From Patescibacteria group bacterium (lineage in GTDB: Bacteria > Patescibacteriota > Patescibacteriia > PEXW01), in the NCBI GenBank assembly GCA_038063455.1, contig JBBTVB010000006.1:39234-103233 (forward strand): DNA of 64,000 bases, written 5' to 3'. The translations under genes and the position numbers were made by a program. Within the stretch, counting starts at the first letter, position 1. Every line of letters begins with the position of its first letter. This document shows, one piece after another, positions 2,250 to 62,001 of this stretch. The notes under the pieces are model-generated. The model did no database searches. It saw nothing but the letters and a program-made list of their open reading frames with translations, and was not told the DNA's origin.

Positions 2250-2255
2250 ATATTT

Positions 2256-3424: not shown

Positions 3425-3441
3425 TGTTTTCTATACTTTTA

Positions 3442-4854: not shown

Positions 4855-4855
4855 A

Positions 4856-6292: not shown

Positions 6293-6408
6293 AGGCAGCA
6301 GTTCATCAGAAGTGCCCAGATTTTGGGCAGTCCCCTAACTGGGGAATGGTTGACGTTTGCCGCCTACATTATGCAAGATTTTGGGGGAAAGGGCAAATTG
6401 TAAAACGG

Positions 6409-10065: not shown

Positions 10066-10149
10066 ATGATAGGAGTTGAGTATAGTAATATTTTTAATAA
10101 GGGGGAGGCAATAATGTCTTACCTCCCCTAGTATAGCAAGTGAAGTGAC

Positions 10150-32455: not shown

Positions 32456-32466
32456 GTACACCCAGC

Positions 32467-32549
32467 ACCACCTATGAAGCGAAACCTGCACAGTAATACT
32501 CAACCCTCAACCACGGATCTATTGGTAGGTGGTGCTGGGTAAATTTTTT
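32467..32549 (+). terminator. Long-stem hairpin (16-bp stem ACCCAGCACCACCTAT / ATAGGTGGTGCTGGGT) followed by AAATTTTTTT
   Basis: It lies directly after the lexA stop. It may terminate or attenuate read-through into the next gene. Confidence 0.5.
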
Positions 32550-32579
32550 TACTTTCCTCTTTCGGTTTTATTTCGGCTC

Positions 32580-33386
32580 ATGCACTTCTTCACTAAACTT
32601 TTTAAAGACCACCAGCACAGCGGCACAAATGTAGCGTACGTACGGCTGTGGCACATGGTGGCTAGCGTAGAGCAGGCAGTGCAACCTACGTTGCGCAGCG
32701 CGCCATTTATAGTTACTGATGCCCGACACACTCCCCTGCGCATAGTGGATGCCAATGAACTTGCACGCACACTTGGCATAAAACCCGGCATGGACGTGCA
32801 GCACGTTCGTCGTCGCTTCCCGCACGTCCAAGTGCGTGGACTCAATGTAGAGCGGCTGCAAGGCTTCATCAGCGCCTTCCACTGCATTGCCAAAAAGTGG
32901 GGCCGTGTTACCAGCACGACGCAAGATGGCCAAGGGCTAACTGTCTTGATACCGGCCGTGGATGCGCTGCAACGCGCGGCTGTCTTCCTACATATCCAAG
33001 AAGCTTGCTGGAAAGAACTGGAATGTAACGTGGCAGTGGGCGTTGGGCCTAGCGTAGATTTTGCGCACCTGGCAGCCATGGCTTGCCCCGAGCCGGGTTT
33101 CCGCTACCTAGACCGGCAGGAGCAGCAGAGCTTGAACACCTTACCTGTAAGTATTATCCCAGGTATTGGCAAACGCACTGCAAGAGCGCTCGTGGAGCTG
33201 GATGTCGCCACGGTCTGGCATTTTATGCAGCTTGATCTAACCACCATTGGTGAACTGGGCGGCCGGTCACTGGTGCGCATTGCCAACCGCTACATACCGG
33301 CGGCAAGTCTGCCACTCACCCCACAATATCAAGTCCCTGGCCAGCTCGTGGGCTTAAACGTATTTGCGGCAAATCACAACCTTTGA
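32580..33386 (+). CDS. Y-family DNA polymerase-like protein lacking catalytic Asp residues (ImuB-like)
   Basis: YVRLWHMVASVEQAVQPTLRSAPFIV aligns to the DinB N-terminus (hvDMDcFFAsVE), but Val/Trp replace the catalytic Asp residues. The HhH motif IPGIGKRTARAL is present. It is only about 270 aa. Confidence 0.5.
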   Translation: MHFFTKLFKDHQHSGTNVAYVRLWHMVASVEQAVQPTLRSAPFIVTDARHTPLRIVDANELARTLGIKPGMDVQHVRRRFPHVQVRGLNVERLQGFISAFHCIAKKWGRVTSTTQDGQGLTVLIPAVDALQRAAVFLHIQEACWKELECNVAVGVGPSVDFAHLAAMACPEPGFRYLDRQEQQSLNTLPVSIIPGIGKRTARALVELDVATVWHFMQLDLTTIGELGGRSLVRIANRYIPAASLPLTPQYQVPGQLVGLNVFAANHNL

Positions 33387-37285: not shown

Positions 37286-38521
37286 TCACTCCATTCCGGT
37301 GCTGGGCGGGAGAATATCCACGCCGACGGTTTTGCGGAACCCAATGCGGTCTGGCGCATGGTGGTCATCCAGGCGCAGCAACTCGCCCTCCACAATCGTC
37401 TCCTCGCCATACTTGTTGTTAATGGCATCCATAGCGCGCGCCAGGGTGCTGGACTTTGGCTGGTGAAAAAGTGAGAGTTGGTTGGTTACCGTTCGCAAGC
37501 GAAAAAGCCCCACAGCATAAAATGTCGGGCAATCGTGTTCCACCCCCGGCTGGAGCATCTGCCACACTGCCCGAAACATCGCCCGTGTACTTGTTAAACC
37601 ATCACCAAGTTTTTTGCTGCCGCCAATGTTACCACGCTGTTCCAAACGAGCATGCCCGTACACGCCGTGGGCTTCTAGGCCGAGCTCCCGCAAGCGCCGA
37701 CCGGCCCGCTCGCACAGCCGCGCCACCAGACCTTTGTGGTAGTGCATATCCCGCGTCCGCAGCCGCAGCACGTGACTGTGGCCAATAGACTTTGGTTGTC
37801 GCGGCGTTTCCAGCTCACCCATTTCCACACCGTTTACATTGGCCCACAGCTCATAGCCCCGAATACCCAGGCTCTCCAGCATATTTACCGGCGACGCAGC
37901 CATGAGCTGGTCCAGAGTAAAAATGCCGAGCGCATGTAACCGGGCAGCTGTGGCCCCGGCAATCCCCCAAGCTTCCTGCACGTCACGGCCTTTCAGGTAC
38001 GCGGCAATATTCCCGCGGTGCAAAATAACCAGGTCGCCTTTCGGCGCAGTGTCACCACCAAATTTCGCCAACCAGCGCGTAGTGGCCACACCCATAGAAC
38101 ACGTCAGCCACTCACCTACTTCATCTATAATCCGCTGCTTGATTTCATAGCCGAGTTGGGCCGCGGCTTCCAGCGATGGGACCGATCCGGTGAGGTCAAG
38201 AAAGGCCTCATCAATGGAATAGGCTTCCATGGCTTCGCTATACTCGGCCAGAATCTGAAAAATCCGCTTGGTGGTGCTGCGGTACTTAGCTGGGTCGACT
38301 TCGACAAATTTTATGTGCGGGCAGCGCTGCCTTGCTTCATCGGCCCGCACCCCCGTACGGATACCAAAGGGTTTTGCCTCTTTTGAGGAAGCAAGCACGC
38401 AACCTTGCACGGTCATAGTGGCGAGCACCGCCACCGGCTTGCCACGCAAAAATGGATTCGCCTGCTGTTCCACCGAGGCGAAATATGAATTCATGTCTAA
38501 ATGGAGGATGACACGTTGCAT
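37286..38521 (-). CDS. dinB: DNA polymerase IV (Y-family, catalytically intact)
   Basis: The N-terminal motifs HLDMNSYFASVE, SIDEAFLD and the HhH motif identify it. It is 411 aa. Confidence 0.8.
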   Translation of the reverse strand: MQRVILHLDMNSYFASVEQQANPFLRGKPVAVLATMTVQGCVLASSKEAKPFGIRTGVRADEARQRCPHIKFVEVDPAKYRSTTKRIFQILAEYSEAMEAYSIDEAFLDLTGSVPSLEAAAQLGYEIKQRIIDEVGEWLTCSMGVATTRWLAKFGGDTAPKGDLVILHRGNIAAYLKGRDVQEAWGIAGATAARLHALGIFTLDQLMAASPVNMLESLGIRGYELWANVNGVEMGELETPRQPKSIGHSHVLRLRTRDMHYHKGLVARLCERAGRRLRELGLEAHGVYGHARLEQRGNIGGSKKLGDGLTSTRAMFRAVWQMLQPGVEHDCPTFYAVGLFRLRTVTNQLSLFHQPKSSTLARAMDAINNKYGEETIVEGELLRLDDHHAPDRIGFRKTVGVDILPPSTGME

Positions 38522-44513: not shown

Positions 44514-44587
44514 TCCGGGATCGTCTAATGGTAGGACATGGGCCTTTGAAGCCCAGTATCTTGGTTCGAGTCCAAGTCCCGGAACCA
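44514..44587 (+). tRNA. tRNA-Gln (anticodon UUG)
   Basis: Cloverleaf: acceptor TCCGGGA/TCCCGGA, anticodon stem-loop TGGGC-CTTTGAA-GCCCA, T-arm CTTGG-TTCGAGT-CCAAG. CCA is encoded. Confidence 0.8.
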
Positions 44588-46596: not shown

Positions 46597-48560
46597 TTGA
46601 GGTTTGCAAAACCAATGCTAAGGGCTTTTTCTGTGTCTGCATACTGTTTCGCTGCCGATGCGGCACCCAGCACGACAGTGACGATTGTTCGGCCCGTGGT
46701 TTTACCTTTTACTTGTGTAATTAAGCAATTACCAGACTCTTCGATGTAGCCGGTCTTAATGCCCGTAACCTGCCAGTCAGTCTCCAGCATTTTATTTCGG
46801 TTCTTAATGGTGTGGGCTTTTTTCGTATTGAGCGTACTAAAACTGTAACTGGTTTTTACTGCGACTTTGGCAATCTGTGGCTTACTCAAAGCTATTGCAG
46901 CCAGTTTTGCCATATCGGCCGCCGACCCTTGGTTGGCAGGGTCGAGACCGGTTGGGTCGGCAAAGGTGAGTGAATCGAGTCCTAAGGCTTTGGCCTTATC
47001 GTTCATGAGCTTCACAAACTGCGCTTCGGTAAGCTTCGTCGAGCGAGCCAGTGCCCGGGTAGCATTGTTTGCCGAACCAATAAGCATGGCATGCCACAAG
47101 TCGTTGGTAGTCATGGTTTCGCCCACGCTCACGTACAGGCACGAACAAATGGCGCCGTCGGTCTTTTGGTAGGTAACAATATTTTTAAACGATGGGTTGC
47201 GATCAAGGTAAACCAATGCCGTCATGAGTTTCGTTAGGCTGGCTACTGGGTGTCGCTCGTCAATATTTTTGCCTGCCACCACCATACCTTTGTCGACATC
47301 GTAGGCAATGGCCGCTGTGCTACTTACGGGCAATGCTACTAGAGCAGTGCTACCGGGATCCGTCGGTGGTAGGGTCGGCTGCGAGGCATCAATCGATTCT
47401 CCTAAAACTTTAGGATCTACGACAGCCACCTTCACCTGGGCTAAGCCGCCATTCTTGCCCTTAATCTTTTTAAAGGCTGTGGAGACAAGGTCAATCACCC
47501 GCCCGCGGACGTACGGCCCGCGCGAAACCACCTTGACCACGGTGGATTTATTATTCTCTAGGTTAGTAACCTTGAGCTTCGTCCCCATGGGGTAACGGTT
47601 GTGCGCCACGCCGTCCGGGTACTTGCGGCTAGCGTACCAGCTGGCAATCCCAATTTCCTCGCCCAGGTCATCCACCACCACCACGTAACCCGCAACGTAC
47701 ACCGTGTTGCCTTGCGTGAGTTCCCACACCTTCTTGGCTGGATTGTAGAAGAGTACGCGCTGGCGCAAAAAACCTTTTTGCGAAACTTTGGGTTGTATAA
47801 CCGCGCCCTTGGCCATCCGCATTAGCACGCCTGCATCTGTGCGAAATGCCAAGAATGCTGCAGGGCTTCTTTGGCTGTAGCGTATTGGGAGTGGTGCCGG
47901 TAGCGCTAGGTCGGGAGTCAAAATAAAAGCCGCTGGTTCAACCAAGGCTTGTGCCCGTAGCGTGTAGGTTGCGGTTGCAGTCGCGGTGCTCATGGCTAGC
48001 GAACCCACGGGTACGGGCAGTATTTGCGTTTGAGGCGTAACCGCAACATCCGGCCCAAGCGCACTGGGCGCCGTTGCGGTGTCAGTAACCGGGACCAGCG
48101 TGGTGTGGAGCCAGCGTGTCGTGCCAATCATCATGTTGGCCGCATCAAGTTTTGTGCCTACAATATTCCACATGTTTGCCACTGGGTCGTACCCCAGCAA
48201 AACCGTAGCGGTGCTTGGCACCGGCGTAGCTTTTACCTTTAGCCAAAGTGTGTTACTCGCTTGGGTTTCGGAGGCGACAGTATCAATCTGCAAACGAAAG
48301 ACCGTCCCGGCTGCAAGGTAGCGCGCGGGCAACGGTATAGGAAGGGGCGCATCTGGCGTAATGGTAACGTTTGCCGGCGCGCTAAAAAGGTTGGGGCGCA
48401 AGCCAAGAATAAACTGGTCGCCCACCCGAACTTCCGTACCCTTGGAGGCGTAGTCGGTGGTCAGCTCCCGCACTGTCGGCTCGGCAGCACTGGCTGGCAG
48501 CGCAACTGCAAGCAACGCGAGGAGACTAAGTGTTATGATAATTTGCGGTCTACTTGTCAT
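46593..48560 (-). CDS. Secreted fusion protein: RlpA-like double-psi beta-barrel domain + D-alanyl-D-alanine carboxypeptidase (S11) domain
   Basis: It has a signal peptide. The RlpA-like core is IGIASWYASRKYPDGVAHNRYPMGTKLKVTNLENNKSTVVKVVSRGPYVRGRVIDLS. The S11 motifs are SLTK (SxxK), SAN (SxN) and KTGY (KTG). Confidence 0.65.
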   Translation of the reverse strand: MTSRPQIIITLSLLALLAVALPASAAEPTVRELTTDYASKGTEVRVGDQFILGLRPNLFSAPANVTITPDAPLPIPLPARYLAAGTVFRLQIDTVASETQASNTLWLKVKATPVPSTATVLLGYDPVANMWNIVGTKLDAANMMIGTTRWLHTTLVPVTDTATAPSALGPDVAVTPQTQILPVPVGSLAMSTATATATYTLRAQALVEPAAFILTPDLALPAPLPIRYSQRSPAAFLAFRTDAGVLMRMAKGAVIQPKVSQKGFLRQRVLFYNPAKKVWELTQGNTVYVAGYVVVVDDLGEEIGIASWYASRKYPDGVAHNRYPMGTKLKVTNLENNKSTVVKVVSRGPYVRGRVIDLVSTAFKKIKGKNGGLAQVKVAVVDPKVLGESIDASQPTLPPTDPGSTALVALPVSSTAAIAYDVDKGMVVAGKNIDERHPVASLTKLMTALVYLDRNPSFKNIVTYQKTDGAICSCLYVSVGETMTTNDLWHAMLIGSANNATRALARSTKLTEAQFVKLMNDKAKALGLDSLTFADPTGLDPANQGSAADMAKLAAIALSKPQIAKVAVKTSYSFSTLNTKKAHTIKNRNKMLETDWQVTGIKTGYIEESGNCLITQVKGKTTGRTIVTVVLGAASAAKQYADTEKALSIGFANLK

Positions 48561-48599
48561 ACGTGCAATGATTGGTTACACTCGATTTCGCGGTACCTG

Positions 48600-48673
48600 C
48601 GGGTATAGTACAGTGGTAGTATGCGTCCTTCCCATGGATGAGATACGGGTTCGATTCCCGTTACCCGCTCCAG
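48600..48673 (+). tRNA. tRNA-Gly (anticodon CCC)
   Basis: Acceptor GCGGGTA/TACCCGC, anticodon loop TTCCCAT, T-arm ACGGG-TTCGATT-CCCGT. CCA is encoded. Confidence 0.8.
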
Positions 48674-48743
48674 AGGTAAGCTTGCCAATTTGGAGTCTTA
48701 GACTGAACAGAGGTTTATACTTTGAATAGACAGAGGGAATCGA

Positions 48744-48857
48744 ACGGGTGCGACCCATTGGGAGCACCCCGGCCCACAGGGCGATTCCCGTTACCCGCTC
48801 CAGCTCGTTTCGCGCTTCGTGCTCGCGTACGCTGCGCACCTGTCGCGCGGGGACCCC
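48744..48857. repeat. Degenerate tRNA fragments: inverted copy of motif GGGGTGCTCCCRATGGGTCGCACCCGT (48744-48770), then a duplicated tRNA-Gly 3' end (T-arm + acceptor + CCA) fused to a truncated trailer element ending GGGGACCCC
   Basis: gattcccgttacccgctcca at 48783-48802 repeats the tRNA-Gly 3' 20 nt. The following ccagctcgtttcgcgc...cgcggggacccc parallels the trailers after the other tRNAs. Confidence 0.6.
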
Positions 48858-48878
48858 AGGGGAAAGTTTGAAAGATGT

Positions 48879-48954
48879 GCCGATGTAGCTCAGCTGGTAG
48901 AGCAATGCTTTCGTAAAGCATGGGTCGGAGGTTCGAATCCTCTCATCGGCTCCA
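48879..48954 (+). tRNA. tRNA-Thr (anticodon CGU)
   Basis: Acceptor GCCGATG/CATCGGC, anticodon loop TTCGTAA, T-arm GGAGG-TTCGAAT-CCTCT. CCA is encoded. Confidence 0.8.
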
Positions 48955-49097
48955 GCTCGTTACGGGCGTCGGGTTCCGCGTCCCCGCATCCGCGAGGCCG
49001 CTGCACCCTCAACCCGCAACTTCGCTTGACCCCACGACCGCGTGCTCGTCGTCCCGCGCAAGCGCGTGACTCCTGCGCGCCACGCTCGTGGGGACCC
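48955..49097 (+). repeat. Conserved tRNA 3'-trailer element, copy A (core 49023-49097: CGCTTGACCCCACGACCGCGTGCTC...GCGCGCCACGCTCGTGGGGACCCC)
   Basis: It starts immediately after the CCA with GCTCGTTACG. Copies also follow tRNA-Trp and tRNA-Thr(GGU), and there is internal dyad symmetry (CCCCACGA...TCGTGGGG). Confidence 0.65.
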
Positions 49098-49104
49098 CGG
49101 GAAG

Positions 49105-50214
49105 CTATTCCTGCGTGTTTGTATTTGCGTCAGCTTCAGGGTCACAGGCAGGCTCGGTTTTTGCTTGCACGCCGCACTCGGCTTCCCACCGGAATCGGGG
49201 TTCGAACAGCATTACCCGGCTTTCCTTCACTTTCGTATTTACCGTATCTTGTAGCCAGGTGTTAAAGTTGGGGGCTTTCAAAATTCGGCGCAGCGTGTAC
49301 ATCGTGCCATCGGCCTTCTTGGCGGCAGCTTCGGTTTTTTCCACCTGTACAATTTCGTAGCCGCGTGTGGTTTCCAGCACCTCGCTCACCTGCCCGGCCT
49401 TTAAGGCTTTCAGGGCTGTTGCTGCATCCCCGTACGCTTCTTCAAGCTGCTTGGTATTCAAAGCATCGAGCAAGCCACTCTTGGCTGCCGAGGCATCGTC
49501 GCTCTTCGCTTTAGCCACATCACCAAAAGTCTTGGCGTCTTTGGCAACGCCGTCCCGAATCCCCTGCGTTTCTTTCTTGGCGTCTGCATAAAACCCCGCC
49601 GCAATCTTATCCTGCACCACTTGCGGTTTTATGAGTTTGGCTTTGAACTGTGCCACGTCCCAGCCGTAAAGCTGCTGGATGTACTTTTCAACCTCCGTGG
49701 CATTGCCCGACTGCTCGACATAACTGTCGTAGGTTGCATCAATATCGGCTTGCGTAACGGTAATATTTTTTTCCTCAGCAATTGTGTTAAGTACGCTTTC
49801 CCCGACCATCTTATTTAAAATAATCCGGCGCGTGTATACATCCTGGCTCAGACCCAGTTTATCGGCAGCGTCAGGGGCAGCATTGCGTTCCAAAAAGCTA
49901 GAAATGTTTGGCACGTCGGTCTGGTATTCGTGGTACGACAGCCAATCCCCGCCCACCACGGCCACCGGGAATGGGATGTACTTGGCTAGCCACAGCAATG
50001 CATCATTTTGCCAGCTAAAACGCATGTAGCCTACGGCAAAAACCAAAACAATTGCCACAATACCTGCCCCAACCCACAGGCCAATACGCTTGAGCCAATG
50101 AATGTGTGGCGGGGGCAGTTGCTTGAGTTCTGGGTGGGCAGGATTTGGCAGCTCATGCTCTGGCTTGCTGAGTTCGCTGCGGACGGCTTCGTGATCGGGG
50201 TGGATGTCTGGCAT
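49105..50214 (-). CDS. Membrane-anchored SurA/PrsA-like chaperone-domain protein
   Basis: It has an N-terminal TM (IGLWVGAGIVAIVLVFAVGY) and a SurA-N-like helical domain. The assignment is weak. Confidence 0.4.
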   Translation of the reverse strand: MPDIHPDHEAVRSELSKPEHELPNPAHPELKQLPPPHIHWLKRIGLWVGAGIVAIVLVFAVGYMRFSWQNDALLWLAKYIPFPVAVVGGDWLSYHEYQTDVPNISSFLERNAAPDAADKLGLSQDVYTRRIILNKMVGESVLNTIAEEKNITVTQADIDATYDSYVEQSGNATEVEKYIQQLYGWDVAQFKAKLIKPQVVQDKIAAGFYADAKKETQGIRDGVAKDAKTFGDVAKAKSDDASAAKSGLLDALNTKQLEEAYGDAATALKALKAGQVSEVLETTRGYEIVQVEKTEAAAKKADGTMYTLRRILKAPNFNTWLQDTVNTKVKESRVMLFEPRFRWEAECGVQAKTEPACDPEADANTNTQE

Positions 50215-50219
50215 GGGAA

Positions 50220-50630
50220 TTAGTTACGGGCGGGCCTAAAGAAGAATTTCCACCAACGCTGAGAGTTCGACGTACCGCCAGCATCGGTGTGAGTTGCAAC
50301 TTCGGAATCGGTTGTAGAAAGTTGTCGGGTTTCGGGCAAGATGAGCAGGGATTCCCCGGGGCGCTGCACGTTCAGCCGCTTGCGGGCTTCCCGCTCGCGA
50401 AAGCTATCGGTGTTAATCGAGGCGACGTACTCGCCTAACGTTCGGTTTTGCGCTTCCAACTCGGCGATCTGCTGTTCCAGGGTAGCAACTTCTTCTCGAA
50501 GGGAAAGCCTGCGCACCACTTCTTTGGTAATGCCGACCACCAAAAAAGCGATAAGCAGTATTTCAAAAACGATCACGCCTCGAGACGTCAGCGCGCGCCG
50601 TAATGCTCGTTTGCGTTCTTGATTTCTCAT
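50220..50630 (-). CDS. Septum formation initiator FtsB/DivIC-like
   Basis: 136 aa with one TM (VIVFEILLIAFLVVGI) then a coiled coil (LREEVATLEQQIAELEAQNRTL). Confidence 0.55.
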   Translation of the reverse strand: MRNQERKRALRRALTSRGVIVFEILLIAFLVVGITKEVVRRLSLREEVATLEQQIAELEAQNRTLGEYVASINTDSFREREARKRLNVQRPGESLLILPETRQLSTTDSEVATHTDAGGTSNSQRWWKFFFRPARN

Positions 50631-50713
50631 GGCAGGACATTGGTTTTACGCTTGTACATTGTCACACAATCGTCTGTGTTCGTCAACCCAGGACCACTTT
50701 GCACCTGTTACAA

Positions 50714-51397
50714 CTAGACTATTTCCTCACGCGTAACCTCGCGTGCATCACCGGGGGCGAGCGCACCAAGCACAAGCCTGTTAATACGCACTCGAGTAAG
50801 ACGCAGAACATCCACCTGGACCCGCCCAAACATGCGACGGATTTGCCGCTTCCAGCCCTGGTGTAAAACCACGCGATAGGTCTTTGGTCCGACCTCTTCT
50901 AGCTTGTCAAAATAGGCCCGACCCTCTTGGAGCTTTACCCCTTGCCGCAGCTCGGCCAGTGCATCAGCATCCAAATGGTGCGACGTGCCAATTTCGTACT
51001 CTTTTTCGTGCTGGAAGCGCGGGTGGGTTAGCTCATTTGCAAGCGCGCCGTCATTGGTCAGCAGCATGAGCCCCTCGGAGTCCTTGTCGAGGCGGCCGGC
51101 AATAACTAGGTCGCGCACGCCTGGGATGATGTCATAAATGGTTCGCTCACTTTTGTACTGCGCCCGCGTCGAAACCACGCCAACAGGTTTGTTGACGGCA
51201 AGATACCGAAACGTCGTAGGTGGTTTTAAGTCGATCCCATCCACCCGCACCGTATCTTTTTCCGGGTCAATACTGGTGCCGAGCTTGGCGACTTGCAAGC
51301 CATTTACAAAAACTTTCCCAGCCGAAATCAGCGTCTCGGCTTTCCGCCGTGACACTATGCCGGTACTGGCAATGAATTTATGGAGACGGGTCAACAT
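50714..51397 (-). CDS. Pseudouridine synthase, RsuA/RluB family
   Basis: It has an S4 domain (KFIASTGIVSRRKAETLISAGKVFVNG) and the catalytic motif GRLDKDSEGLMLLTNDG. Confidence 0.8.
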   Translation of the reverse strand: MLTRLHKFIASTGIVSRRKAETLISAGKVFVNGLQVAKLGTSIDPEKDTVRVDGIDLKPPTTFRYLAVNKPVGVVSTRAQYKSERTIYDIIPGVRDLVIAGRLDKDSEGLMLLTNDGALANELTHPRFQHEKEYEIGTSHHLDADALAELRQGVKLQEGRAYFDKLEEVGPKTYRVVLHQGWKRQIRRMFGRVQVDVLRLTRVRINRLVLGALAPGDAREVTREEIV

Positions 51398-51407
51398 AGC
51401 TATGCTT

Positions 51408-51541
51408 GGGGTCCCCGTGAGCGTGGCGCGCACGAACGCAGTGAGGAGCACGCGGTCATGGGGTCAAGCGAGGCTTCGTCCCCGACTGCGGAGCGGGTTC
51501 GGCGCTGGCGGATACGCGGAGCGAAGAGGGGCGAAACGAGC
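51408..51541 (-). repeat. Conserved tRNA 3'-trailer element, copy B (downstream of tRNA-Trp)
   Basis: On the minus strand the sequence after the CCA reads GCTCGTTTCGCCCC...CGCTTGACCCCATGACCGCGTGCTC...GCGCGCCACGCTCACGGGGACCCC. Confidence 0.65.
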
Positions 51542-51616
51542 TGGCGGGGGCACTAGGATTCGAACCTAGAATAACGGTTTTGGAGACCGTTGTGATAACC
51601 GTTTCACCATGCCCCC
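51542..51616 (-). tRNA. tRNA-Trp (anticodon CCA)
   Basis: Minus-strand cloverleaf: acceptor GGGGGCA/TGCCCCC, anticodon loop CTCCAAA, T-arm CTAGG-TTCGAAT-CCTAG. CCA is encoded. Confidence 0.8.
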
Positions 51617-51622
51617 AAGTTG

Positions 51623-51868
51623 TTAAGCAATAGCGAGACGTTTCTTCAATGCTTGCAATGCGGAGCCATATGCTTTCAATTTCTGTTCTCGCACCCTTGC
51701 CAAAGCTTCGTTATTATAAGCTTCATAATACACCAGCTCTGGCTTATCCATGTGGCGCGTTGTTTGCGTCTGACCTTGCGCGTGTTCAGCGAGGCGACGC
51801 TGAAGATTGTTGGTCGAGCCAATATAATTTCGACCCTGTGCATCCTTTAGTAAATAGACGTAATACAT
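51623..51868 (-). CDS. GIY-YIG nuclease-domain protein (UPF0213-like, ~81 aa)
   Basis: MYYVYLLKDAQGRNYIGSTNNLQRRLAEHAQG is a textbook GIY-YIG motif (YxVYxL...G..YIGsT.NL.rRL.eH). The ORF-track start at 51937 lies inside an upstream hairpin. Confidence 0.7.
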   Translation of the reverse strand: MYYVYLLKDAQGRNYIGSTNNLQRRLAEHAQGQTQTTRHMDKPELVYYEAYNNEALARVREQKLKAYGSALQALKKRLAIA

Positions 51869-51939
51869 AGTGGTTTTGGACCCAGCCCTTCGCGAAGGGC
51901 TGGGTAGAGACCGCTGCCTGCCCAGCCATGCGCGCATGG

Positions 51940-51965
51940 CTGGGTGATAGCCGTTTCACCATGCC
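51940..51965 (-). repeat. Duplicated 5' fragment of tRNA-Trp (acceptor 5' strand + D-arm; 24/26 identical) upstream of the GIY-YIG ORF
   Basis: The minus strand has GGGGGCATGGTGAAACGGCTATCACC, against GGGGGCATGGTGAAACGGTTATCACA in the intact gene. Two GC-rich hairpins follow. Confidence 0.65.
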
Positions 51966-51995
51966 CCCATAGGGTGTAAACGCGTTGTAAAGACG

Positions 51996-52151
51996 TTATT
52001 TCGTTTCCTTATGCAACGTATGCTTGCCGCACCAGGTGCAGTGTTTCTTCAACTCTAAGCGACCCTTGAGGGTCTTCTTATTTTTTTTCGAATGGTAGTT
52101 TACGTGCTTGCAAACTGTGCACTCGAGATTTATCAGGTTGTCTTGGGACAT
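51996..52151 (-). CDS. rpmG: 50S ribosomal protein L33
   Basis: [51 protein letters not shown] shows the Zn-ribbon L33 pattern. Confidence 0.8.
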
Positions 52152-52190
52152 ACTATTATGAGTAATGAAGAAATGTATTAAATATTTCGC

Positions 52191-52266
52191 TGGAGCCACC
52201 CGTCGGATTCGAACCGACGACCTTCGCTTTACAAAAGCGTTGCTCTACCAGCTGAGCTAGGGTGGC
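52191..52266 (-). tRNA. tRNA-Thr (anticodon UGU)
   Basis: Acceptor GCCACCC/GGGTGGC, anticodon loop TTTGTAA, T-arm GTCGG-TTCGAAT-CCGAC. CCA is encoded. It lies 39 nt upstream of rpmG. Confidence 0.8.
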
Positions 52267-52287
52267 CTAGGTTCTGGTAACCGAGGT

Positions 52288-52360
52288 GCCGGAGACCCCG
52301 CCGTGGCGGGGCGACCTTCGCTTTACAAAAGCGTTGCTCTACCAGCTGAGCTACTCCGGC
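52288..52360 (-). pseudogene. tRNA-Thr(UGU)-derived pseudo-tRNA: own acceptor stem (GCCGGAG/CTCCGGC), intact D- and anticodon arms identical over ~42 nt to tRNA-Thr(UGU), T-arm replaced by GC hairpin CCCCGCC-GTG-GCGGGG
   Basis: Minus-strand read: GCCGGAGTAGCTCAGCTGGTAGAGCAACGCTTTTGTAAAGCGAAGGTCGCCCCGCCACGGCGGGGTCTCCGGC. There is no TΨC loop. Confidence 0.55.
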
Positions 52361-52440
52361 AAGATTTTGAAGAACTACGAGGATCCCGCGTCCGCCTCCA
52401 TAGTAGCAGCAAACGGGCGGGACAAAAGCGTTGCTCTTCC

Positions 52441-52557
52441 GGGGTGCTCCCGATGGGTCGCACCCGTCCCGCCTACGGCGGGACCCAGCTGAGTCCCGAC
52501 ACCGCGTTGCGGTGTCGCGGATCCTCGCCCCGACGATGCTACGTCGTGGGCGGGACT
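52441..52557. repeat. Composite repeat block: GGGGTGCTCCCGATGGGTCGCACCCGT motif, hairpin GTCCCGCC-TAC-GGCGGGAC, and ~65-nt element GAGTCCCGAC-hairpin-GGATCCTCGCCCCGACG...CGTCGTGGGCGGGACTA (second copy at 52887-52950)
   Basis: All motifs recur elsewhere in the window: 48744-48770 (inverted), 22268-22284, 24402-24419 and 52887-52950. Confidence 0.6.
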
Positions 52558-52622
52558 ATCCCGGCAAATTTTGAAAGTCAGTTGAGTGACATAGTCGTAC
52601 TTTTCAAGAATCTTCTCGGGGA

Positions 52623-52763
52623 TTCCCCACGAGCGTGGCGCGCAGGAGTCACGCGCTTGCGCGAGACGACGAGCACGCGGTCGTGGGGTCAAGCGAGGCT
52701 TCGTGCGATGGGCGCAGTGGGCTGCCGAATGGCGGCACACGGAGCTCGGAGCGCGAAACGAGC
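52623..52763 (-). repeat. Conserved tRNA 3'-trailer element, copy C (downstream of tRNA-Thr GGU)
   Basis: Minus strand after the CCA: GCTCGTTTCGCGC...CGCTTGACCCCACGACCGCGTGCTCGTCGTCTCGCGCAAGCGCGTGACTCCTGCGCGCCACGCTCGTGGGGAATC. It is about 97% identical to copy A over the 75-nt core. Confidence 0.65.
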
Positions 52764-52839
52764 TGGAGCCGATGGCCGGAATTGAACCGGCGACCTACTC
52801 CTTACCATGGAGTTGCTCTACCAGCTGAGCTACATCGGC
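52764..52839 (-). tRNA. tRNA-Thr (anticodon GGU)
   Basis: Acceptor GCCGATG/CATCGGC, anticodon loop ATGGTAA, T-arm GCCGG-TTCAATT-CCGGC. CCA is encoded. Confidence 0.75.
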
Positions 52840-52886
52840 ATAATGTTTGGAAAACGTTTGTCAGGTTCAAGGTGCAAGGCCTCGCT

Positions 52887-52950
52887 GAGTCCCGACCCCG
52901 TAGGGGTCGTGGATCCTCGCCCCGACGCTGCTGCGTCGTGGGCGGGACTA
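52887..52950. repeat. Second copy of the GAGTCCCGAC-hairpin-GGATCCTCGCCCCGACG...GGGCGGGACTA element, followed by a duplicated 13 nt of the tRNA-Thr(GGU) 5' end (CTACATCGGCATA)
   Basis: Compare 52491-52557. ctacatcggcata also occurs at the 5' end of the tRNA-Thr(GGU) gene (52829-52845). Confidence 0.6.
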
Positions 52951-52980
52951 CATCGGCATATAGATTGGGAACCTACGACT

Positions 52981-53871
52981 CTACAATTCTTTCACGGCTT
53001 GTGCAAGTTCCTCAAGTTTTTGATTCTCTGGGTTAGCGGCTTGTAGTTTTTCGAGTGCTGCTTTTGCGAGATTTTTTCGTTTGCTAGTTAGTGCAAACTG
53101 GAGCAACGCATCGAGATACTTTGGGTTTGCCGGTTCCAGTTTAACGGCTTCTTGGTACGCAGTCTCGGCTTTGTCGATGTTGCCCAGGTTTTCTTCGGTG
53201 ACACCCAGTTCATAGTGCGTACCTGCAGTGAGGGCGTTGAGGCTCACAGACTTTAAATAGTCGGCTTCCGCTTCGGCAAACTTCCCTTCCTGGGTGTCAA
53301 TATTACCCAACCGCGCGTAGGCAACATCGCTATCTTGCTGCAACTTGAGTACGAACTTCAGAGCTTCGCGAGCATTGACGTAATCTTTGCGGGCAGTTGC
53401 AGCATCGGCCAATCCCAGGTACGCGTCAATATTCTTAGGGTCTAAGCTGACGACATCCACAAAGTGCTGCTCGGCCCGGGGCCAATCCCCTGCCGCAACC
53501 GCAGTTTGCGCTTCGGTGAGGGCGGCGGCAACTTTTGCGCGCAGCGCATCCGGGTCGTCAATGGCTTGCTGCACCACAATCTTCCGACGATACTCGCGTT
53601 CTAACTGCGTCAATTTTGTAAAAATGTTTTGTCCGGTGGTGCGCACGCCGCGGAAAAAACTAGCAAACCCCTTGGCAATAACCGCTTCCACATTCCCGAG
53701 CTTCTGCTGCAGGCGCTTATCTAAAATTTGCTGTTTGCGAAGTTGATGCTGGTGCTTCGGTATAGCTTCAATGCGGATGCTAGCCAACTGCGGCAGCTTA
53801 CGCCACACAACCACCGCGCAGGCAGCCACGCTAGCGGCAAACACTCCTAGTAAAATCCAATCAACAAGCAT
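52981..53871 (-). CDS. Membrane-anchored TPR-repeat protein
   Basis: It has an N-terminal TM and multiple TPR units (AYLGLADAATARKDYVNAREALKFVLKL..., AYARLGNIDTQEGKFAEAEADYLKSV..., THYELGVTEENLGNIDKAETAYQEAVKLEP). Confidence 0.6.
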   Translation of the reverse strand: MLVDWILLGVFAASVAACAVVVWRKLPQLASIRIEAIPKHQHQLRKQQILDKRLQQKLGNVEAVIAKGFASFFRGVRTTGQNIFTKLTQLEREYRRKIVVQQAIDDPDALRAKVAAALTEAQTAVAAGDWPRAEQHFVDVVSLDPKNIDAYLGLADAATARKDYVNAREALKFVLKLQQDSDVAYARLGNIDTQEGKFAEAEADYLKSVSLNALTAGTHYELGVTEENLGNIDKAETAYQEAVKLEPANPKYLDALLQFALTSKRKNLAKAALEKLQAANPENQKLEELAQAVKEL

Positions 53872-57870: not shown

Positions 57871-57912
57871 AAAGAAAATGGGACCTAACAAAAATAGAGA
57901 AGGAGGCCTAAA

Positions 57913-58173
57913 GTGGACATTGAAATCATTGGACTCATAGTTCTATCATTAGTAATTGCTGCTCGGGTGTTGTGGGTTCGGCGCCCATTCAAAAGGAATG
58001 AACGAGTAACGTTCCGTAGTGATAAGGATTTTGATACCTACGGTATAAAACCTACGGACTTCATGTTCATTACGCGCATCATCATGGGGAATGGACCCAT
58101 GGCAAAAATTGAAGGTATTAAAGAGTACGTACCTGTAAAAAAATTGAAACGATGGCCGAGTTGGAAAGTATAA
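57913..58173 (+). CDS. Small membrane protein, unknown function
   Basis: 86 aa with an N-terminal TM (IIGLIVLSLVIAARVLWV) and a strong RBS. Confidence 0.4.
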   Translation: MDIEIIGLIVLSLVIAARVLWVRRPFKRNERVTFRSDKDFDTYGIKPTDFMFITRIIMGNGPMAKIEGIKEYVPVKKLKRWPSWKV

Positions 58174-58180
58174 AGTAAAG

Positions 58181-58210
58181 ACGTGCCCATCGGCACGTCT
58201 TTTTATTATC
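58181..58210 (+). terminator. Rho-independent terminator AGACGTGCC-CATC-GGCACGTCT + TTTTATT
   Basis: A perfect 9-bp stem, directly after the 57913-58173 gene. Confidence 0.65.
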
Positions 58211-58240
58211 TACGCCTTCCGCTCTGTAAGTATCAAAATT

Positions 58241-58501
58241 TCAAAATATGGGTGGCATTAGAAGTGCTACGAGCACAAAGCCTAGTGCGTACAAAAATAG
58301 AGTGAGCCAGGTAGCTCCAAACGACTTCCATAACCCGACATGTTTTCTCATTATCCAAACTGTAAGTATTACCGGTGATAAAATTGCTACAGTTAAAGTA
58401 ACTATTGCACTACTTTCTTGGAAACTGTACACAAGTAGCGCACTAACTACCCCGGAGATAAATCCTACATATGTGAAGATTCTAATAAGTCTCATAATCA
58501 T
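58241..58501 (-). CDS. Small integral membrane protein
   Basis: 86 aa with 3 TM helices, in an AT-rich context. Confidence 0.35.
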   Translation of the reverse strand: MIMRLIRIFTYVGFISGVVSALLVYSFQESSAIVTLTVAILSPVILTVWIMRKHVGLWKSFGATWLTLFLYALGFVLVALLMPPIF

Positions 58502-59015
58502 AGTAATGATGCTCGCAAATTGTATCTGGTTCTATAATAAATGCTGCTTGATCTAAATCTGATCTAAAAACAGGTCGTTTTAGGGATCTTCGGCATTTTT
58601 GATAATCATATTTGTATGATATCCACCTATGACACGAGCCTAAAATATAGCCGTCTGTAGAAACAAGAGGTTCTTTTAGAACAACAACTGGTCTAAGTCT
58701 ACTAAAAATTAATTTTCCTGTTGGATCACATATTTTAGTAGTACATTCACTGTTTTGCTTGCACGCTACACCTGCATCAGGAGCCAATTTGCTACATGCC
58801 GCAATCGAGGGTGAGAAAGACTTACCTTGAAGAGGGCAGAAAACTTTCTTGAGTATCCCTACCCGAATTGAACTAGTCGGGTTAGCTATACTAAAGGTCA
58901 GATAAAATACTGCAATCACCGGTATAGCAGACAAAAAAACTACTAGTGCTATTCTAAAAAACTTACTTTGCACTTTTGGCTGCGGATTACTTGGTTGTGA
59001 TTTGGGTGTCTCCAT
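58482..59015 (-). CDS. Membrane-anchored Cys-rich secreted protein
   Basis: 177 aa with an N-terminal TM (FFRIALVVFLSAIPVIAVFYLTF) and about 10 Cys in the ectodomain. Confidence 0.35.
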   Translation of the reverse strand: METPKSQPSNPQPKVQSKFFRIALVVFLSAIPVIAVFYLTFSIANPTSSIRVGILKKVFCPLQGKSFSPSIAACSKLAPDAGVACKQNSECTTKICDPTGKLIFSRLRPVVVLKEPLVSTDGYILGSCHRWISYKYDYQKCRRSLKRPVFRSDLDQAAFIIEPDTICEHHYYDYETY

Positions 59016-59027
59016 AGATCAATTTTA

Positions 59028-61490
59028 TCACGCCTTCCGCTCCGCCACCATGGGTGGTGGCGCGGCCACGCCGAGCTGGGAGCGGTCTAAGATTTCTTGT
59101 TCAACTTCGGCCCGAACTTTACCGTATTGCTGGCGCGATTGCTGCACCAGCTGCTCGGCTAGGCCGGGCGTGGGCGAGGCTAACGGCAGGGTCTGCATGG
59201 TAAATGGCTTGGATGCCGTATTGTCGATGAGAAGTTTAACAATGGCCTCGTACTTCTCGATATTCGTCACATCGTACTGGCTAAAGGTTGGTGCAAAGGC
59301 CTGGGCAAAAATTTCGGCATCTTCCACGCCCACGCGGAAGGCGGCAATAGTACCCACGTTGCCAAACACGGCATCACGAATCTTTGTGTCTTGCTTCTCG
59401 ACCAGCTGGCCCACGTACTGGTGCGCAATGGTCAGGTTGAGTCGGTACTTTCGCGCTTCGGATAAAATCGTTGCCACGGAATCGGTGACGAAATTCTGGA
59501 ATTCGTCCACGTACAGGAAAAAGTCTTTGCGCTGCTCTTGAGGCAGACTCGCCCGGCGCAAGGCCGCCATTTGGAGTTTGGCAACGATAATCAAACCAAG
59601 CAGATTGGCATTCACCTCGCCCGTGCTTCCCTTGGCCAAGTTCACAAGGAGGATTTTGCCGTCATTCATTATCTGCTGGAAATTGAAGCCGCTCTTGGAC
59701 TGGCCAATGACGTTGCGCATCATGCTGTTTTCCACGAAGCGGCCAACTTTGCTAATGAGGTAGCCGAGCATTTCGGACTTGTGGAAGTCACTGGTCTTGG
59801 CCATTTCTTTTTCCCAGAACGCACGGACAATGGGGTCGGTGACTTTGGCGACCTTGGCCTTTTGGAACGCCGGGTCGGTAAACATGCGCGGGATCTCCAC
59901 AATCGTGCCCGGGTTTTCCCGGTCCGCCATGAGCGTGAGCATGACGTTGCGCATGTTGTGCTCGAACATCGGGCCGATGACTTCGGGCGGGAAAAGCTTC
60001 ATGAAAATGGCAATCATTTCCTGCACCGCAAAATCCTGCGCGTCTGGTGTTTCGGCATCCAGCATGTTGAGGCCTACGGGAAACTCAACGTCGGATGGAT
60101 TGAAGTGGATAACATCTTTCCAACGATGTTCAGGGATGCGCGCCAAAATATCTTGGATGAGATCACCGTGCGGGTCCACCACGCAGACGCCGTCGCCATT
60201 GGCAATATCCTGCAACGCCATATTGGCAATGAGCACAGACTTGCCGACGCCAGATTTCCCAATGACGTACACGTGACGACGACGGTCTTCCCGGCCGATG
60301 CGAATTTGGGTTTCCGCTCCGCGGAAATTACTGACACCCATGAGCACGCCTTCCTTGGGTGCGTTGACCGGTGGGGGCGCACTGCGAGACATGACCCAGG
60401 CGATGTTCGGTGTTTCGGTGCTTGGTAAAGGCAAGTGCCACAAGCTGGCTACCTCTTCCACGCTCAACACAGAACTGCGACCACCATCAAACGCGCGATA
60501 GATGAAGTCGTGAATGAGTCGGTCTTTTTTAAACGGGTCTTTCCGTTCAAAACCGTTACCCGTGTCAAACGCATTGTACTGGCCAAAGGCATCCTGAATA
60601 TTTTTGAGACGGATAAGCGCCGCTTGTTGCGTGGCGCTAGAAACCACAATACGGACATTCACGTCCAACCCCGCCTTGCTATTTTTCTCTTGCACGCGTT
60701 GCACCAGCACCTCCTGGGCGGGGTTCAACTGCTTGGGCATATCTGACATGGCGTCTTTCTTCTTACCGCTGCTAAAGAACATGCCAAAAATTTCTTTGGC
60801 AATATTTTTGGCCATGGAGTTGGAAACTGTGCCGCCGCTGCGCAAGCTGTGAATAGTACTGGTGGCACGGCTATGCCAGCGCGGGTTGGAAGACCGGCAG
60901 ACGTACTGGATGACCGCACCTTCTTCCGGGCTCAATTTGGACAGTGCATTGGTTAGGCCGGAAAGCGGATCCACGTCCATGCGCCGGTACGACAAGATTG
61001 GTAGCACCGTATTTTTCTTAAGTCGCAAATTCGCCGCCACCACGTGCGAGGTTGGCCGAAAGGGGTTGTACTCGGTGGTCTGGGTAATGTCGGAGGATGG
61101 GTACTGGGCGTGCAGCTGCTGCTCCATGAACTCGCGCATGGGTTCGGGCACGATAATGTAAAAACGAATTTCCCCGCGGTCCGCAACGATTTCTAACGTA
61201 AAGTGGTCGTCCCGCCCGCGGCCGAGCGTTTGGTACCAGCGTTGCGCCCGCATATTGCCCAAAAATGACAGGAATGATTCGCCAACGCTAATCTGCTCTT
61301 GCAGCTGCTGGATGCGCGACGCGCCTTGGCCGCTCTCTTCTTCCTGCTGCTCTTTGGGCAGCATCACCTGGAGGCAGACGTGCTGCACCGGGGCTGCGCT
61401 TCGACTTCGCTTCCGGAACACAAGCATAACCGCCGCGCCGATAACCAGCAGGCCGAGGGTTGCGAAAAGGATAATAGAGATGAGCGGCAT
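59028..61490 (-). CDS. Membrane-anchored FtsK/HerA-superfamily ATPase, TraG/TraD/VirD4 coupling-protein-like
   Basis: It has an N-terminal TM (MPLISIILFATLGLLVIGAAVMLV) and an N-terminal domain of about 400 aa of unknown function. Walker A is VIGKSGVGKSVLIANM and Walker B is FFLYVDEFQNF, the TraG/TraD-type DEF motif. The start is chosen so its ATG sits 1 nt after the upstream gene's stop. Confidence 0.55.
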   Translation of the reverse strand: MPLISIILFATLGLLVIGAAVMLVFRKRSRSAAPVQHVCLQVMLPKEQQEEESGQGASRIQQLQEQISVGESFLSFLGNMRAQRWYQTLGRGRDDHFTLEIVADRGEIRFYIIVPEPMREFMEQQLHAQYPSSDITQTTEYNPFRPTSHVVAANLRLKKNTVLPILSYRRMDVDPLSGLTNALSKLSPEEGAVIQYVCRSSNPRWHSRATSTIHSLRSGGTVSNSMAKNIAKEIFGMFFSSGKKKDAMSDMPKQLNPAQEVLVQRVQEKNSKAGLDVNVRIVVSSATQQAALIRLKNIQDAFGQYNAFDTGNGFERKDPFKKDRLIHDFIYRAFDGGRSSVLSVEEVASLWHLPLPSTETPNIAWVMSRSAPPPVNAPKEGVLMGVSNFRGAETQIRIGREDRRRHVYVIGKSGVGKSVLIANMALQDIANGDGVCVVDPHGDLIQDILARIPEHRWKDVIHFNPSDVEFPVGLNMLDAETPDAQDFAVQEMIAIFMKLFPPEVIGPMFEHNMRNVMLTLMADRENPGTIVEIPRMFTDPAFQKAKVAKVTDPIVRAFWEKEMAKTSDFHKSEMLGYLISKVGRFVENSMMRNVIGQSKSGFNFQQIMNDGKILLVNLAKGSTGEVNANLLGLIIVAKLQMAALRRASLPQEQRKDFFLYVDEFQNFVTDSVATILSEARKYRLNLTIAHQYVGQLVEKQDTKIRDAVFGNVGTIAAFRVGVEDAEIFAQAFAPTFSQYDVTNIEKYEAIVKLLIDNTASKPFTMQTLPLASPTPGLAEQLVQQSRQQYGKVRAEVEQEILDRSQLGVAAPPPMVAERKA

Positions 61491-61491
61491 G

Positions 61492-62001
61492 CTAGCGCGG
61501 CGGCAAAAGGCTGACGAGTTTTTGGGCTTTGATCTTTGCTTCTTGTTCCACAAAAAATTTGTTCACGCCGGGAATCGATGAGAGCCAGCGCCGGATGACA
61601 TCGACGATGGCCGAAACCTTCACTTTGACCTGGCCAAGTAGGTTGTTGACTTCTTGCGCAGCCTGCTCCCCTGCCACTTTGAATTTCTGCTGCTCGGCCG
61701 GCGGCAACGCTTTAAAAATATCTTCCAAGCCTTCGGCCAGCACCTGCTCAACCTGCTGCAACTGCTGCTCCGTGGCGTTTATCGGCAAGGGCATGGCGGG
61801 CACTGGCGGTGCCACAGCCGGTGTTTCTTTTACCTGGCTTGGCACTTCGGGATGTTGCTCAAAACGCTCACCGTGTTTTTCTAAGGCTTCGCGGACTTTT
61901 TCGGGCCGTACTTCGGGCGGTCGTTCGGGTGCCCGATCGACAAGCTCAAAAATATCGATGGGTTCTTGCTCGGGTTTGGGGGCGGCGGGTTGCGCGGTCA
62001 T
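61492..62001 (-). CDS. Hypothetical protein, Pro-rich N-terminus (possibly partner of the TraG-like ATPase)
   Basis: The start is chosen at MTAQPAAPKPEQE. Its stop codon abuts the ATG of the ATPase gene (TAGCATG on the minus strand). Confidence 0.4.
   Translation of the reverse strand: MTAQPAAPKPEQEPIDIFELVDRAPERPPEVRPEKVREALEKHGERFEQHPEVPSQVKETPAVAPPVPAMPLPINATEQQLQQVEQVLAEGLEDIFKALPPAEQQKFKVAGEQAAQEVNNLLGQVKVKVSAIVDVIRRWLSSIPGVNKFFVEQEAKIKAQKLVSLLPPR

Follow-up and report, generated by a model that had tools for sequence, protein, structure and literature searches.

A 64,000-nt stretch of DNA from a Patescibacteria group bacterium (assembly GCA_038063455.1, contig JBBTVB010000006.1, positions 39,234 to 103,233; hereafter the window) was found to carry members of a family of structured elements attached to the 3' ends of transfer RNA (tRNA) genes. 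The unit, referred to here as the trailer or trailer E, is GC-rich, 135-150 nt long, and extends from the first base after the CCA end through GGGGACCCC. When the window and nine related Patescibacteria metagenome loci were searched with a covariance model, 20 distinct copies were obtained at an E-value <= 1e-6, and 20/20 lie in tRNA orientation with their first base directly after a tRNA 3' end. Together with a fold that covaries and the absence of a match in Rfam, these findings bear out the family of tRNA-linked trailers that had been proposed from the letters of the window alone (the sequence-only reading). The trailer may be an RNA cassette co-transcribed 3' of the tRNA, where it would act in cis to punctuate or process transcripts that contain tRNAs; to this reading we assign a probability of roughly 0.4.

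Three full copies of 134-146 nt each are present in the window. Copy A (48955-49098, forward strand; 151.8 bits with the covariance model) follows the CCA of tRNA-Thr(CGU) (48879-48954, forward strand) and ends in GGGGACCCC. Copy B (51408-51541, reverse strand; 118.3 bits) follows the CCA of tRNA-Trp (CCA anticodon; 51542-51616, reverse strand), and copy C (52618-52763, reverse strand; 161.8 bits) follows the CCA of tRNA-Thr(GGU) (52764-52839, reverse strand) and ends in GGGGAATCCCC. Copy D (48803-48857, forward strand), identified by alignment and by a weak covariance match of 12 bits, follows a tRNA-Gly 3' fragment and is internally deleted, retaining GCTCGTTTCGCGC at the 5' end and GGGGACCCC at the 3' end. 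These three tRNA genes and an intact tRNA-Gly(CCC) (48599-48672, forward strand) were called by both ARAGORN and Rfam; tRNA-Thr(UGU) (52191-52266, reverse strand) has no trailer. The CCA end is encoded in 5/5 tRNA genes of the region (Gly, Thr(CGU), Trp, Thr(UGU) and Thr(GGU)). The G+C content of the full copies A, B and C is 70-73% compared to roughly 52% for the window.

The first covariance model was built from eight copies, and a search of the entire 64-kb window with filters off found no trailer beyond A, B and C (118-162 bits) and D (12 bits). The junction motif CCAGCTCGTTWCG occurs four times in the window, where chance would give 0.2, and every occurrence marks a tRNA 3' end or the tRNA-Gly 3' fragment; the 25-mer core CGCTTGACCCCAYGACCGCGTGCTC occurs three times compared to 0.00 expected. 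The four tRNA-end-linked blocks of the sequence-only reading were thus confirmed. Alignment upheld the near-identity of the Thr(CGU) and Thr(GGU) copies in their second half and the greater divergence of the Trp copy, and it showed that the shortened copy ending in CGCGGGGACCCC after the tRNA-Gly fragment, also noticed at that stage, is internally deleted. A core of ~75 nt had been taken as the conserved part; it is present, but the unit is the entire 135-150 nt from CCA to GGGGACCCC. None of the open reading frames (ORFs) overlapping the blocks, which had been supposed to be artefacts, had a Pfam match, and a protein-coding role was rejected.

Loci of related Patescibacteria, denoted here by L-numbers, were retrieved by core scans and by fetching homologues of the adjacent RluB. 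The two public scans were queried with an internal core 21-mer only; the junction was not included, so that the result was not biased toward tRNAs. Seven loci were returned, and the five genuine copies were all linked to tRNAs: they follow tRNA-Lys (L001 and L006), tRNA-His (L004), a tRNA-Gly fragment (L002, identical to L003) and a decayed tRNA 3' end (L007). The remaining two (L005 and L008) were chance matches within coding sequence. Syntenic loci were gathered through RluB homologues of 89, 83, 70, 70, 65, 64 and 51% identity. Among the 20 copies, 12 stand behind an intact tRNA and 8 behind a displaced tRNA 3' fragment, and no copy was found away from a tRNA end, which was the association that the sequence-only reading had proposed to check. 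Ten types of tRNA carry it, among them Thr(GGU), Thr(CGU), Trp, Gly(CCC), Gln, Lys, His, Tyr and a Phe-like pseudogene. In this group of groundwater Patescibacteria, a trailer stands behind roughly every second tRNA gene. Both the metagenome-assembled genome GCA_964364675.1 and assemblies from the Hainich aquifer hold proteins identical to those of the window. Among named relatives, Kerfeldbacteria are the closest, and one Kerfeldbacteria genome gave a weak match (23.8 bits) directly 3' of tRNA-Ala(GGC). Several of the related contigs stop at or beside a trailer.

Fold, conservation and turnover

RNAalifold analysis of a MAFFT alignment of eight copies predicted a pair of long irregular hairpins. 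The pairs A76-U, G+1-C and C+2-G, followed by GUUUCG/CGAAGC, close domain 1 at the tRNA end itself; then come a UUGA linker, domain 2 (CCCCACGA...UCGUGGGG) and an ACCCC tail. In this independent alignment, compensatory changes were found in 13 of 39 pairs. In the alignment of all 20 copies, 92.9% of 730 pair cells were standard compared to 31-45% when the partners were slid, both sides changed in 27/39 pairs, and the observed values were reached by 0/500 shuffles. Fitting to the model biased this alignment toward the structure, but the difference is wide and the independent alignment gives the same picture. The internal dyad symmetry that the sequence-only reading had noted in the core is real, and so is the covariation across copies that it had proposed to test. 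Approximately 33 nt, comprising the 3' strand of helix 1, the linker and the 5' strand of helix 2, are near-invariant, and so are their pairing partners. The hairpin tips differ in both length and sequence, and recurrent modules such as GTCCCGC-N-GCGGGAC often take their place. The ~50 nt after the junction, previously described as variable, are indeed variable in sequence, but they form the first hairpin domain, whose structure is held by compensatory changes. When tRNA-Thr(GGU) and its trailer were folded together, the cloverleaf and the two hairpins formed as separate domains.

The trailer was compared with known classes of structured element. A gathering-threshold scan of the window against Rfam 15 returned tRNAs only, and scans by E-value, run on the interval 48500-53100 and on the trailer by itself, produced nothing credible (best 14.9 bits compared to a threshold of 50); the families covered include HDV-like, hatchet, twister and hammerhead ribozymes, group I/II introns, rRNA and tRNA-like elements. 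Nor did the trailer prove to be a degraded rRNA-spacer fragment, the outcome that the sequence-only reading had named as counting against it. An HDV-like ribozyme was rejected because, by inspection, no conserved complement to GCUCGUU is present after P3, where the nested double pseudoknot requires a partner strand for nt +1 to +7; the candidate P1 partner CGAG(U/C) is not conserved and pairs elsewhere with covariation, and the Rfam HDV models gave no match. Any other 5'-cleaving ribozyme fold was rejected by inspection as well, there being no conserved P1 partner. A promoter within the element was considered on account of TTGACC in the linker, but no copy has a -10 box 16-18 nt further on and the promoter scan was empty. 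A viral origin was dismissed, as scans of viral contigs gave chance matches only, with neither tRNAs nor covariance-model matches. The sequence-only reading had also allowed for a termination module. However, no T-run follows GGGGACCCC in any copy and the terminator scan placed nothing at the element ends; the lack of a T-run and the placement of copy B, which stops 10 nt short of the rluB start codon and leaves no space for a promoter, indicate that transcription reads through and exclude a classical intrinsic terminator.

Orthologous trailers of the window and L030 were found to be 94% (Thr(GGU)) and 95% (Trp) identical, and the Gln trailers of L030 and L032 are 88% identical. In contrast, only 42% of the four-fold degenerate sites of the neighbouring rluB are identical between the window and L030, and 27% between the window and L032. 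The high identity of the orthologous copies next to that of the synonymous sites indicates that the copies are under selection in place. Moreover, paralogues within one genome are 81-82% identical, and orthologues are closer and keep their copy-specific tips. Comparison of the sequences thus indicates that the trailers reflect vertical descent under constraint rather than recent spread. The tRNA-Gly leader and the 5' region of rpmG are also conserved between the same genomes (~85%, judged by eye), and parts of the neighbouring hairpin-bearing tRNA fragments are strikingly conserved too; constraint alone is therefore no proof of a function for the host.

The trailer family is old and has undergone turnover. 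L036, with an RluB identity of 65%, has a diverged form of the trailer. L034 (64% RluB identity), which belongs to a sister lineage, lacks trailer E and has a distinct two-hairpin trailer, E2 (GCCTTCGCC...GGCGAAGGC TGTCCTCC...GGAGGACA), which begins at the first base after the CCA in 5/6 L034 tRNAs (copies at 4038-4200, 4318-4480, 5372-5440, 12430-12500 and 12659-12730 of that locus); two of the copies have insertions of ~120 nt in the tip of hairpin 1. The improved covariance model R2 did not detect E2, and only the UUCGC/GCGAA motif of the first helix is common to E and E2. Presence at orthologous sites varies, as the Thr(CGU) trailer is found in the window only and the Trp trailer is missing in L032 and L037. 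The site orthologous to copy D holds a full copy in L027/L002 and in L037, and the short copies of L032 have a deletion between internal CCGCGTG repeats. Copy A is a mosaic: its domain 1 is of the L030 tRNA-Gly type and its domain 2 of the type of copy C (Thr(GGU)), and it is 89% identical to the L030 Gly copy. A crossover between the Thr(GGU) and Gly copies through a large inversion was rejected as the source of this chimera, since the predicted gene order does not match the window.

The sequence-only reading had regarded the duplicated 3' end of tRNA-Gly beside copy D as a possible integration scar of the trailer. Repeat analysis and comparison with relatives retained the duplication, refined to 21 nt from the T-loop to the CCA (48782-48802, forward strand), and overturned the scar: the repeat brackets a different insertion of ~110 nt, insert X (48673-48781, forward strand), which was delimited by an inverted repeat and by comparison with L002, L027, L030, L032 and L037. 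Insert X lies between the intact tRNA-Gly and the displaced 3' end, contains an inverted copy of the T-arm (GGGAATCGAAC), the hairpin GGGTGCGACCCATTGGGAGCACCC and small GC hairpins, and is a separate insertion outside the trailer. The 21-nt block is the displaced original 3' end of tRNA-Gly with its trailer still attached. This architecture was seen again in L027 and L037 for tRNA-Gly and in L027, L030 and L032 for tRNA-Gln; the tRNA-Gly of L030, which lacks the insert, and the tRNA-Gln of L037 are joined straight to a trailer. Between the first Gln fragment of L027 and a second, degenerate one bearing trailer domain 1 there is a two-gene segment of 3.6 kb. The trailer is always on the chromosomal side of the insertion, outside the duplication. 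This recurring architecture in relatives indicates that the trailer predates the insertion and is the older flank of the tRNA. Downstream of the trailers that are joined directly to intact tRNAs, no second tRNA fragment of the kind left by an integrase at an attachment (att) site was found. A candidate trailer relic upstream of tRNA-Gly (48574-48598, CTCGATTTCGCGG) proved instead to be a conserved leader with a TACACT -10-like box, which is also present in L030 and L032.

Readings of the trailer

Under the reading that we prefer, the trailer is a vertically inherited cassette of one lineage of Patescibacteria (candidate phyla radiation, CPR), most likely transcribed within the tRNA precursor. 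The cassette would fix an endonucleolytic cut straight after the encoded CCA (we infer the transcription, the cleavage at CCA|G and the enzyme) and would part the tRNA from the RNA downstream on the same transcript, be it the next tRNA or an mRNA such as that of rluB. The downstream RNA would be left capped by a stable structure after the cut. This reading is favoured by the single-base CCA junction, the fixed orientation, the covarying fold, the conservation in place, the operon position and the analogous trailer in a sister lineage. The operon position is clearest for copy B, which ends 10 nt before the ATG of rluB (51397) in the window and likewise in L030 and is therefore probably carried on a tRNA-Trp-rluB transcript; co-transcription is supported by position, by orientation and by the absence of promoter space before rluB. 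A stronger claim, that E and E2 trailers are the RNA component of a lineage-specific way of making tRNA 3' ends, either as a self-processing RNA or as a module for a dedicated nuclease, is a long shot. If it were true, an exact cut after the CCA would replace exonucleolytic trimming and CCA repair in an organism with minimal RNA-processing machinery.

Several findings weigh against an RNA cassette acting in cis. Full copies are conserved behind a tRNA fragment of only 20 nt (Gly in L027 and L037, Gln in L030 and L032), which does not sit easily with a role confined to maturation of the attached tRNA. The non-Watson-Crick cells of the 20-copy alignment comprise 23 G.U, 28 A.C and 8 other, with no strand bias; since an A.C cell is a G.U cell on the opposite strand, the RNA sense strand is not specifically indicated. 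The trailer is not universal, being absent from tRNA-Thr(UGU) and tRNA-Gln of the window and from the Ile, Val and Phe tRNAs of L007. Types are shuffled between tRNAs, as the Gly-fragment copy of L027 is of the Thr(GGU) type and copy A of the window is chimeric. Shortened copies exist (copy D in the window, two in L032 and one in L027), indicating that individual copies are dispensable. Finally, the family is set among many other GC-rich hairpin insertions at tRNA genes, the setting that is expected of selfish DNA.

The main rival is a selfish mobile element, a GC-rich palindromic double hairpin with specificity for the 3' boundary of tRNA genes, where its insertion is harmless because the tRNA stays intact. 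It would be one of a broader group of hairpin elements aimed at conserved positions in tRNAs, and other GC-rich hairpins were in fact found in partial tRNA copies at nt 10/11, in the D-loop, in the anticodon loop and in the T-loop. The turnover between lineages (E, the L036 variant and E2 in L034), the uneven presence at orthologous tRNAs (Thr(CGU) in the window only; Trp without it in L032 and L037), the exchange of types between tRNAs, the truncated copies and the wobble-type cells free of strand bias fit such an element as well. Wholesale replacement of tips by GTCCCGC...GCGGGAC modules is likewise seen in yeast mitochondrial GC clusters (PMC4478555). However, a conservation of 94-95% between orthologous copies that keep their own tips, next to saturated synonymous sites, is unexpected for dead or passive transposons. 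All copies found sit at a tRNA end, and a clean pair of empty and filled sites was not seen. The two ends of the element (GCTCGTTTCG... and ...GGGGACCCC) do not form an inverted repeat, and no target-site duplication was found at the flanks, which are NCCA on the left and unrelated sequence on the right; a MITE (a miniature transposable element with inverted repeats) was rejected on these grounds. Among the 56 window ORFs scanned, no transposase, integrase or reverse transcriptase was detected. Hairpins are present at both ends, one domain at each, as in IS200/IS605-derived palindromic elements (PATE) and REP-RAYT systems; by inspection, the left hairpin begins at the first base and leaves no space for an IS608-type guide segment, and no Y1 (HUH) transposase or RAYT domain was found among the 56 ORFs scanned, which cover 64 kb of the genome. 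Moreover, orientation tracks the tRNA and not the replication strand: there are two copies on each strand of a window whose GC skew follows a uniform, monotonic trend, although the number of copies is small. On balance we consider a selfish element somewhat less likely than the RNA cassette.

The conservation behind a 20-nt tRNA fragment could also be explained if the trailers were stand-alone two-hairpin small RNAs of ~140 nt acting in trans, with the upstream tRNA serving as promoter and as a handle for 5' processing. The 5' end is set at the tRNA junction, a constant scaffold carries variable hairpin tips, and each paralogue keeps its own sequence between genomes. The variable parts are, however, self-paired tips and not single-stranded, guide-like segments, shortened copies are tolerated, and tRNA-dependent 5' processing would fail where only a fragment stands upstream. 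This makes a trans-acting RNA improbable.

Least probable, and by our estimate very much so, is a function at the level of DNA, in which the trailer would be bound or recombined by a protein such as a recombinase or nucleoid protein, or would act as an att-like landing pad, its hairpins forming in single-stranded or cruciform DNA. The lack of strand bias in the wobble-type cells, the ~33 near-invariant nt at the bases of both hairpins and in the linker, the inversion of trailer-bearing tRNA blocks relative to flanking genes among relatives, and the chimeric copy A, which suggests recombination within the conserved core, are all in keeping with a DNA site. In contrast, the breakpoints of the inversions, of insert X and of the island insertions lie at tRNA T-loops or block borders and not in the trailer, no recombinase gene was found nearby among the scanned window ORFs, and DNA binding would require neither strict orientation nor a single-base tRNA junction.

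Other features of the window and related loci

Other insertions were observed at the tRNA genes of the region. A small GIY-YIG nuclease ORF (51623-51871, reverse strand) lies between a decayed copy of the tRNA-Trp 5' half (51880-51970, reverse strand), which is interrupted by two CCCAGC...GCTGGG-type hairpins, and the intact tRNA-Trp. Both the ORF and the half-copy are absent at the tRNA-Trp site of L030. Homologues of the GIY-YIG protein with 60-63% identity were found in other CPR lineages (L011, ~9940-10320; L017, ~2740-3120) in the same layout, namely a tRNA-Trp 5' fragment with a similar hairpin, the ORF and tRNA-Trp. Judged from this arrangement, the unit looks like a homing-endonuclease cassette that targets tRNA-Trp and duplicates the 5' part of the tRNA.

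Upstream of the functional tRNA-Thr(UGU), the segment 52283-52560 (reverse strand) holds two decayed tRNA-Thr(UGU)-like copies. Copy 2 (52287-52360) scores 44.9 bits as a tRNA, although CCCCGCCACGGCGGGG stands in place of its T-arm. Three GC-rich hairpin insertions divide copy 1, which has the acceptor stem GCCGGGA of the functional Thr(UGU) in L030; the functional Thr(UGU) of the window has GCCACCC, as in L032. These stems suggest that the tRNA gene may have been replaced by a foreign allele set beside the old one.

An element of ~57 nt (TCCCG...GGATCC...CGGGA) with two hairpins was found between nt 10 and 11 (GTAG|CTCA) of duplicated tRNA 5' fragments, at 52884-52960 and 52490-52552 of the window (both reverse strand), at ~950-1020 of L001 and upstream of tRNA-Thr(GGU) in L034. 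The fragments stand upstream of an intact tRNA-Thr(GGU), a Thr(UGU) pseudo-copy and the tRNA-Lys of another genome. This element is a second tRNA-associated repeat family. In other loci, complete tRNA genes for Phe, Thr(GGU) and Tyr are nested in an older, hairpin-invaded copy of the same tRNA (L007, 190-470, reverse strand; L037, 1700-1910; L036, 362-625). The nested genes are flanked by leader/trailer inverted repeats, and the old copy retains the E trailer; in L036, the insertion lies exactly after the anticodon loop of the old tRNA-Tyr.

The wider setting of the window was also compared with that of relatives. The tRNA-Gln (44514-44587) and the tRNA-Gly/Thr(CGU) block (48599-48954) are inverted among close relatives with respect to conserved flanking genes (window compared to L027, L030, L032 and L037); these flanks are ftsX and a ppiD-like gene with the gene for a 655-aa carboxypeptidase. 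Next to the tRNA-Gln of the window, the trailer and two genes have been lost. The G+C content is low at 1-7000 and 57900-58600 (33-41% compared to ~52-55%), and these stretches, which hold ThiF-like, FeeM/GNAT-like and 7TM-sensor ORFs and several ORFs with no Pfam match, may be horizontally acquired segments. A TraG/VirD4-type coupling-protein gene (59028-61553) adjoins them. Elsewhere, a LexA gene is followed by a Y-family polymerase-like ORF (31835-33386), with a second Y-family polymerase gene 4 kb away (37286-38521), and a DUF559 (Vsr-like endonuclease) ORF is located at 12918-13325.

Comparison with known systems

Patescibacteria genomes are very small, and a conserved non-coding structure of 135-150 nt behind many tRNAs calls for an explanation. 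If the trailer is an RNA cassette, it would represent a way, not described so far, of maturing tRNA 3' ends or punctuating operons in a large uncultured section of the bacterial tree, and a new structured RNA family missed by annotation pipelines. If it is selfish DNA, it would be a bacterial counterpart of fungal mitochondrial GC clusters and, to our knowledge, the first bacterial repeat aimed at the exact CCA boundary of a tRNA. Either way, trailer repeats break short-read assemblies at tRNA loci. No description of the element was found in the literature searches or in Rfam, and a paper about group I introns in the tRNA genes of Patescibacteria (PMC13011429) makes no mention of the trailers.

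The closest parallels come from organelles. In Neurospora mitochondria, GC-rich palindromes flank tRNA genes (PMC7218506), and the GC clusters of yeast mitochondria merge and shuffle (PMC4478555). Whether such palindromes are processing signals or selfish DNA has been debated for decades (Yin et al. 1981, cited in PMC7218506 and PMC4478555). Like the trailer, organelle GC clusters are non-coding, GC-rich hairpin repeats at tRNA genes in a less GC-rich genome, and their hairpin modules merge, nest and exchange. However, the organelle elements are 18-50 nt long, are scattered through intergenic DNA to either side of genes and are often flanked by short direct repeats, whereas the trailer is a two-domain unit of 135-150 nt that occurs on the 3' side only, in one orientation, and is joined to the CCA with single-base precision. 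Moreover, the trailer belongs to a bacterial lineage, free-living or episymbiotic, its orthologous copies are strongly conserved, and it has no sequence similarity to the organelle elements.

Bacterial repeats of the REP/BIME, REPIN and MITE type (such as Correia, RPE and RUP) are also multi-copy, non-coding and hairpin-forming and are often co-transcribed at the 3' ends of genes, and REPINs can persist vertically for long. REP elements have a GTAG-type tetranucleotide and a partner RAYT gene, and MITEs are marked by terminal inverted repeats and by target-site duplications; the analysis of the trailer found none of them, and we know of no REP/BIME, REPIN or MITE-type family that is tied to the CCA end of tRNAs.

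Structured RNA located 3' of a tRNA on the same transcript is known from the 3' external transcribed spacer of leuZ in Escherichia coli (3'ETS-leuZ), which is a sponge, from plant tRNA-snoRNA genes and from the tRNA-like/pre-miRNA units of murine gammaherpesvirus 68 (MHV68). The 5' end of these RNAs is set by tRNA 3' processing, and they are single loci or viral genes with known functions in trans. In contrast, the trailer, known here from sequence alone, is a paralogous family behind many different tRNAs. The scars left by integrase islands, in which a tRNA 3' end is duplicated, resemble insert X, as a duplicate of 20-22 nt from the T-loop to the CCA flanks inserted DNA at tRNA-Gly and tRNA-Gln; the likeness fits insert X and the 3.6-kb island of L027 but not the trailer. 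The trailer is thus set apart from organelle palindromes, from REP and MITE repeats and from tRNA 3' spacers by its size, its two-domain build, its 3' position fixed to a single base and the conservation of its orthologous copies.

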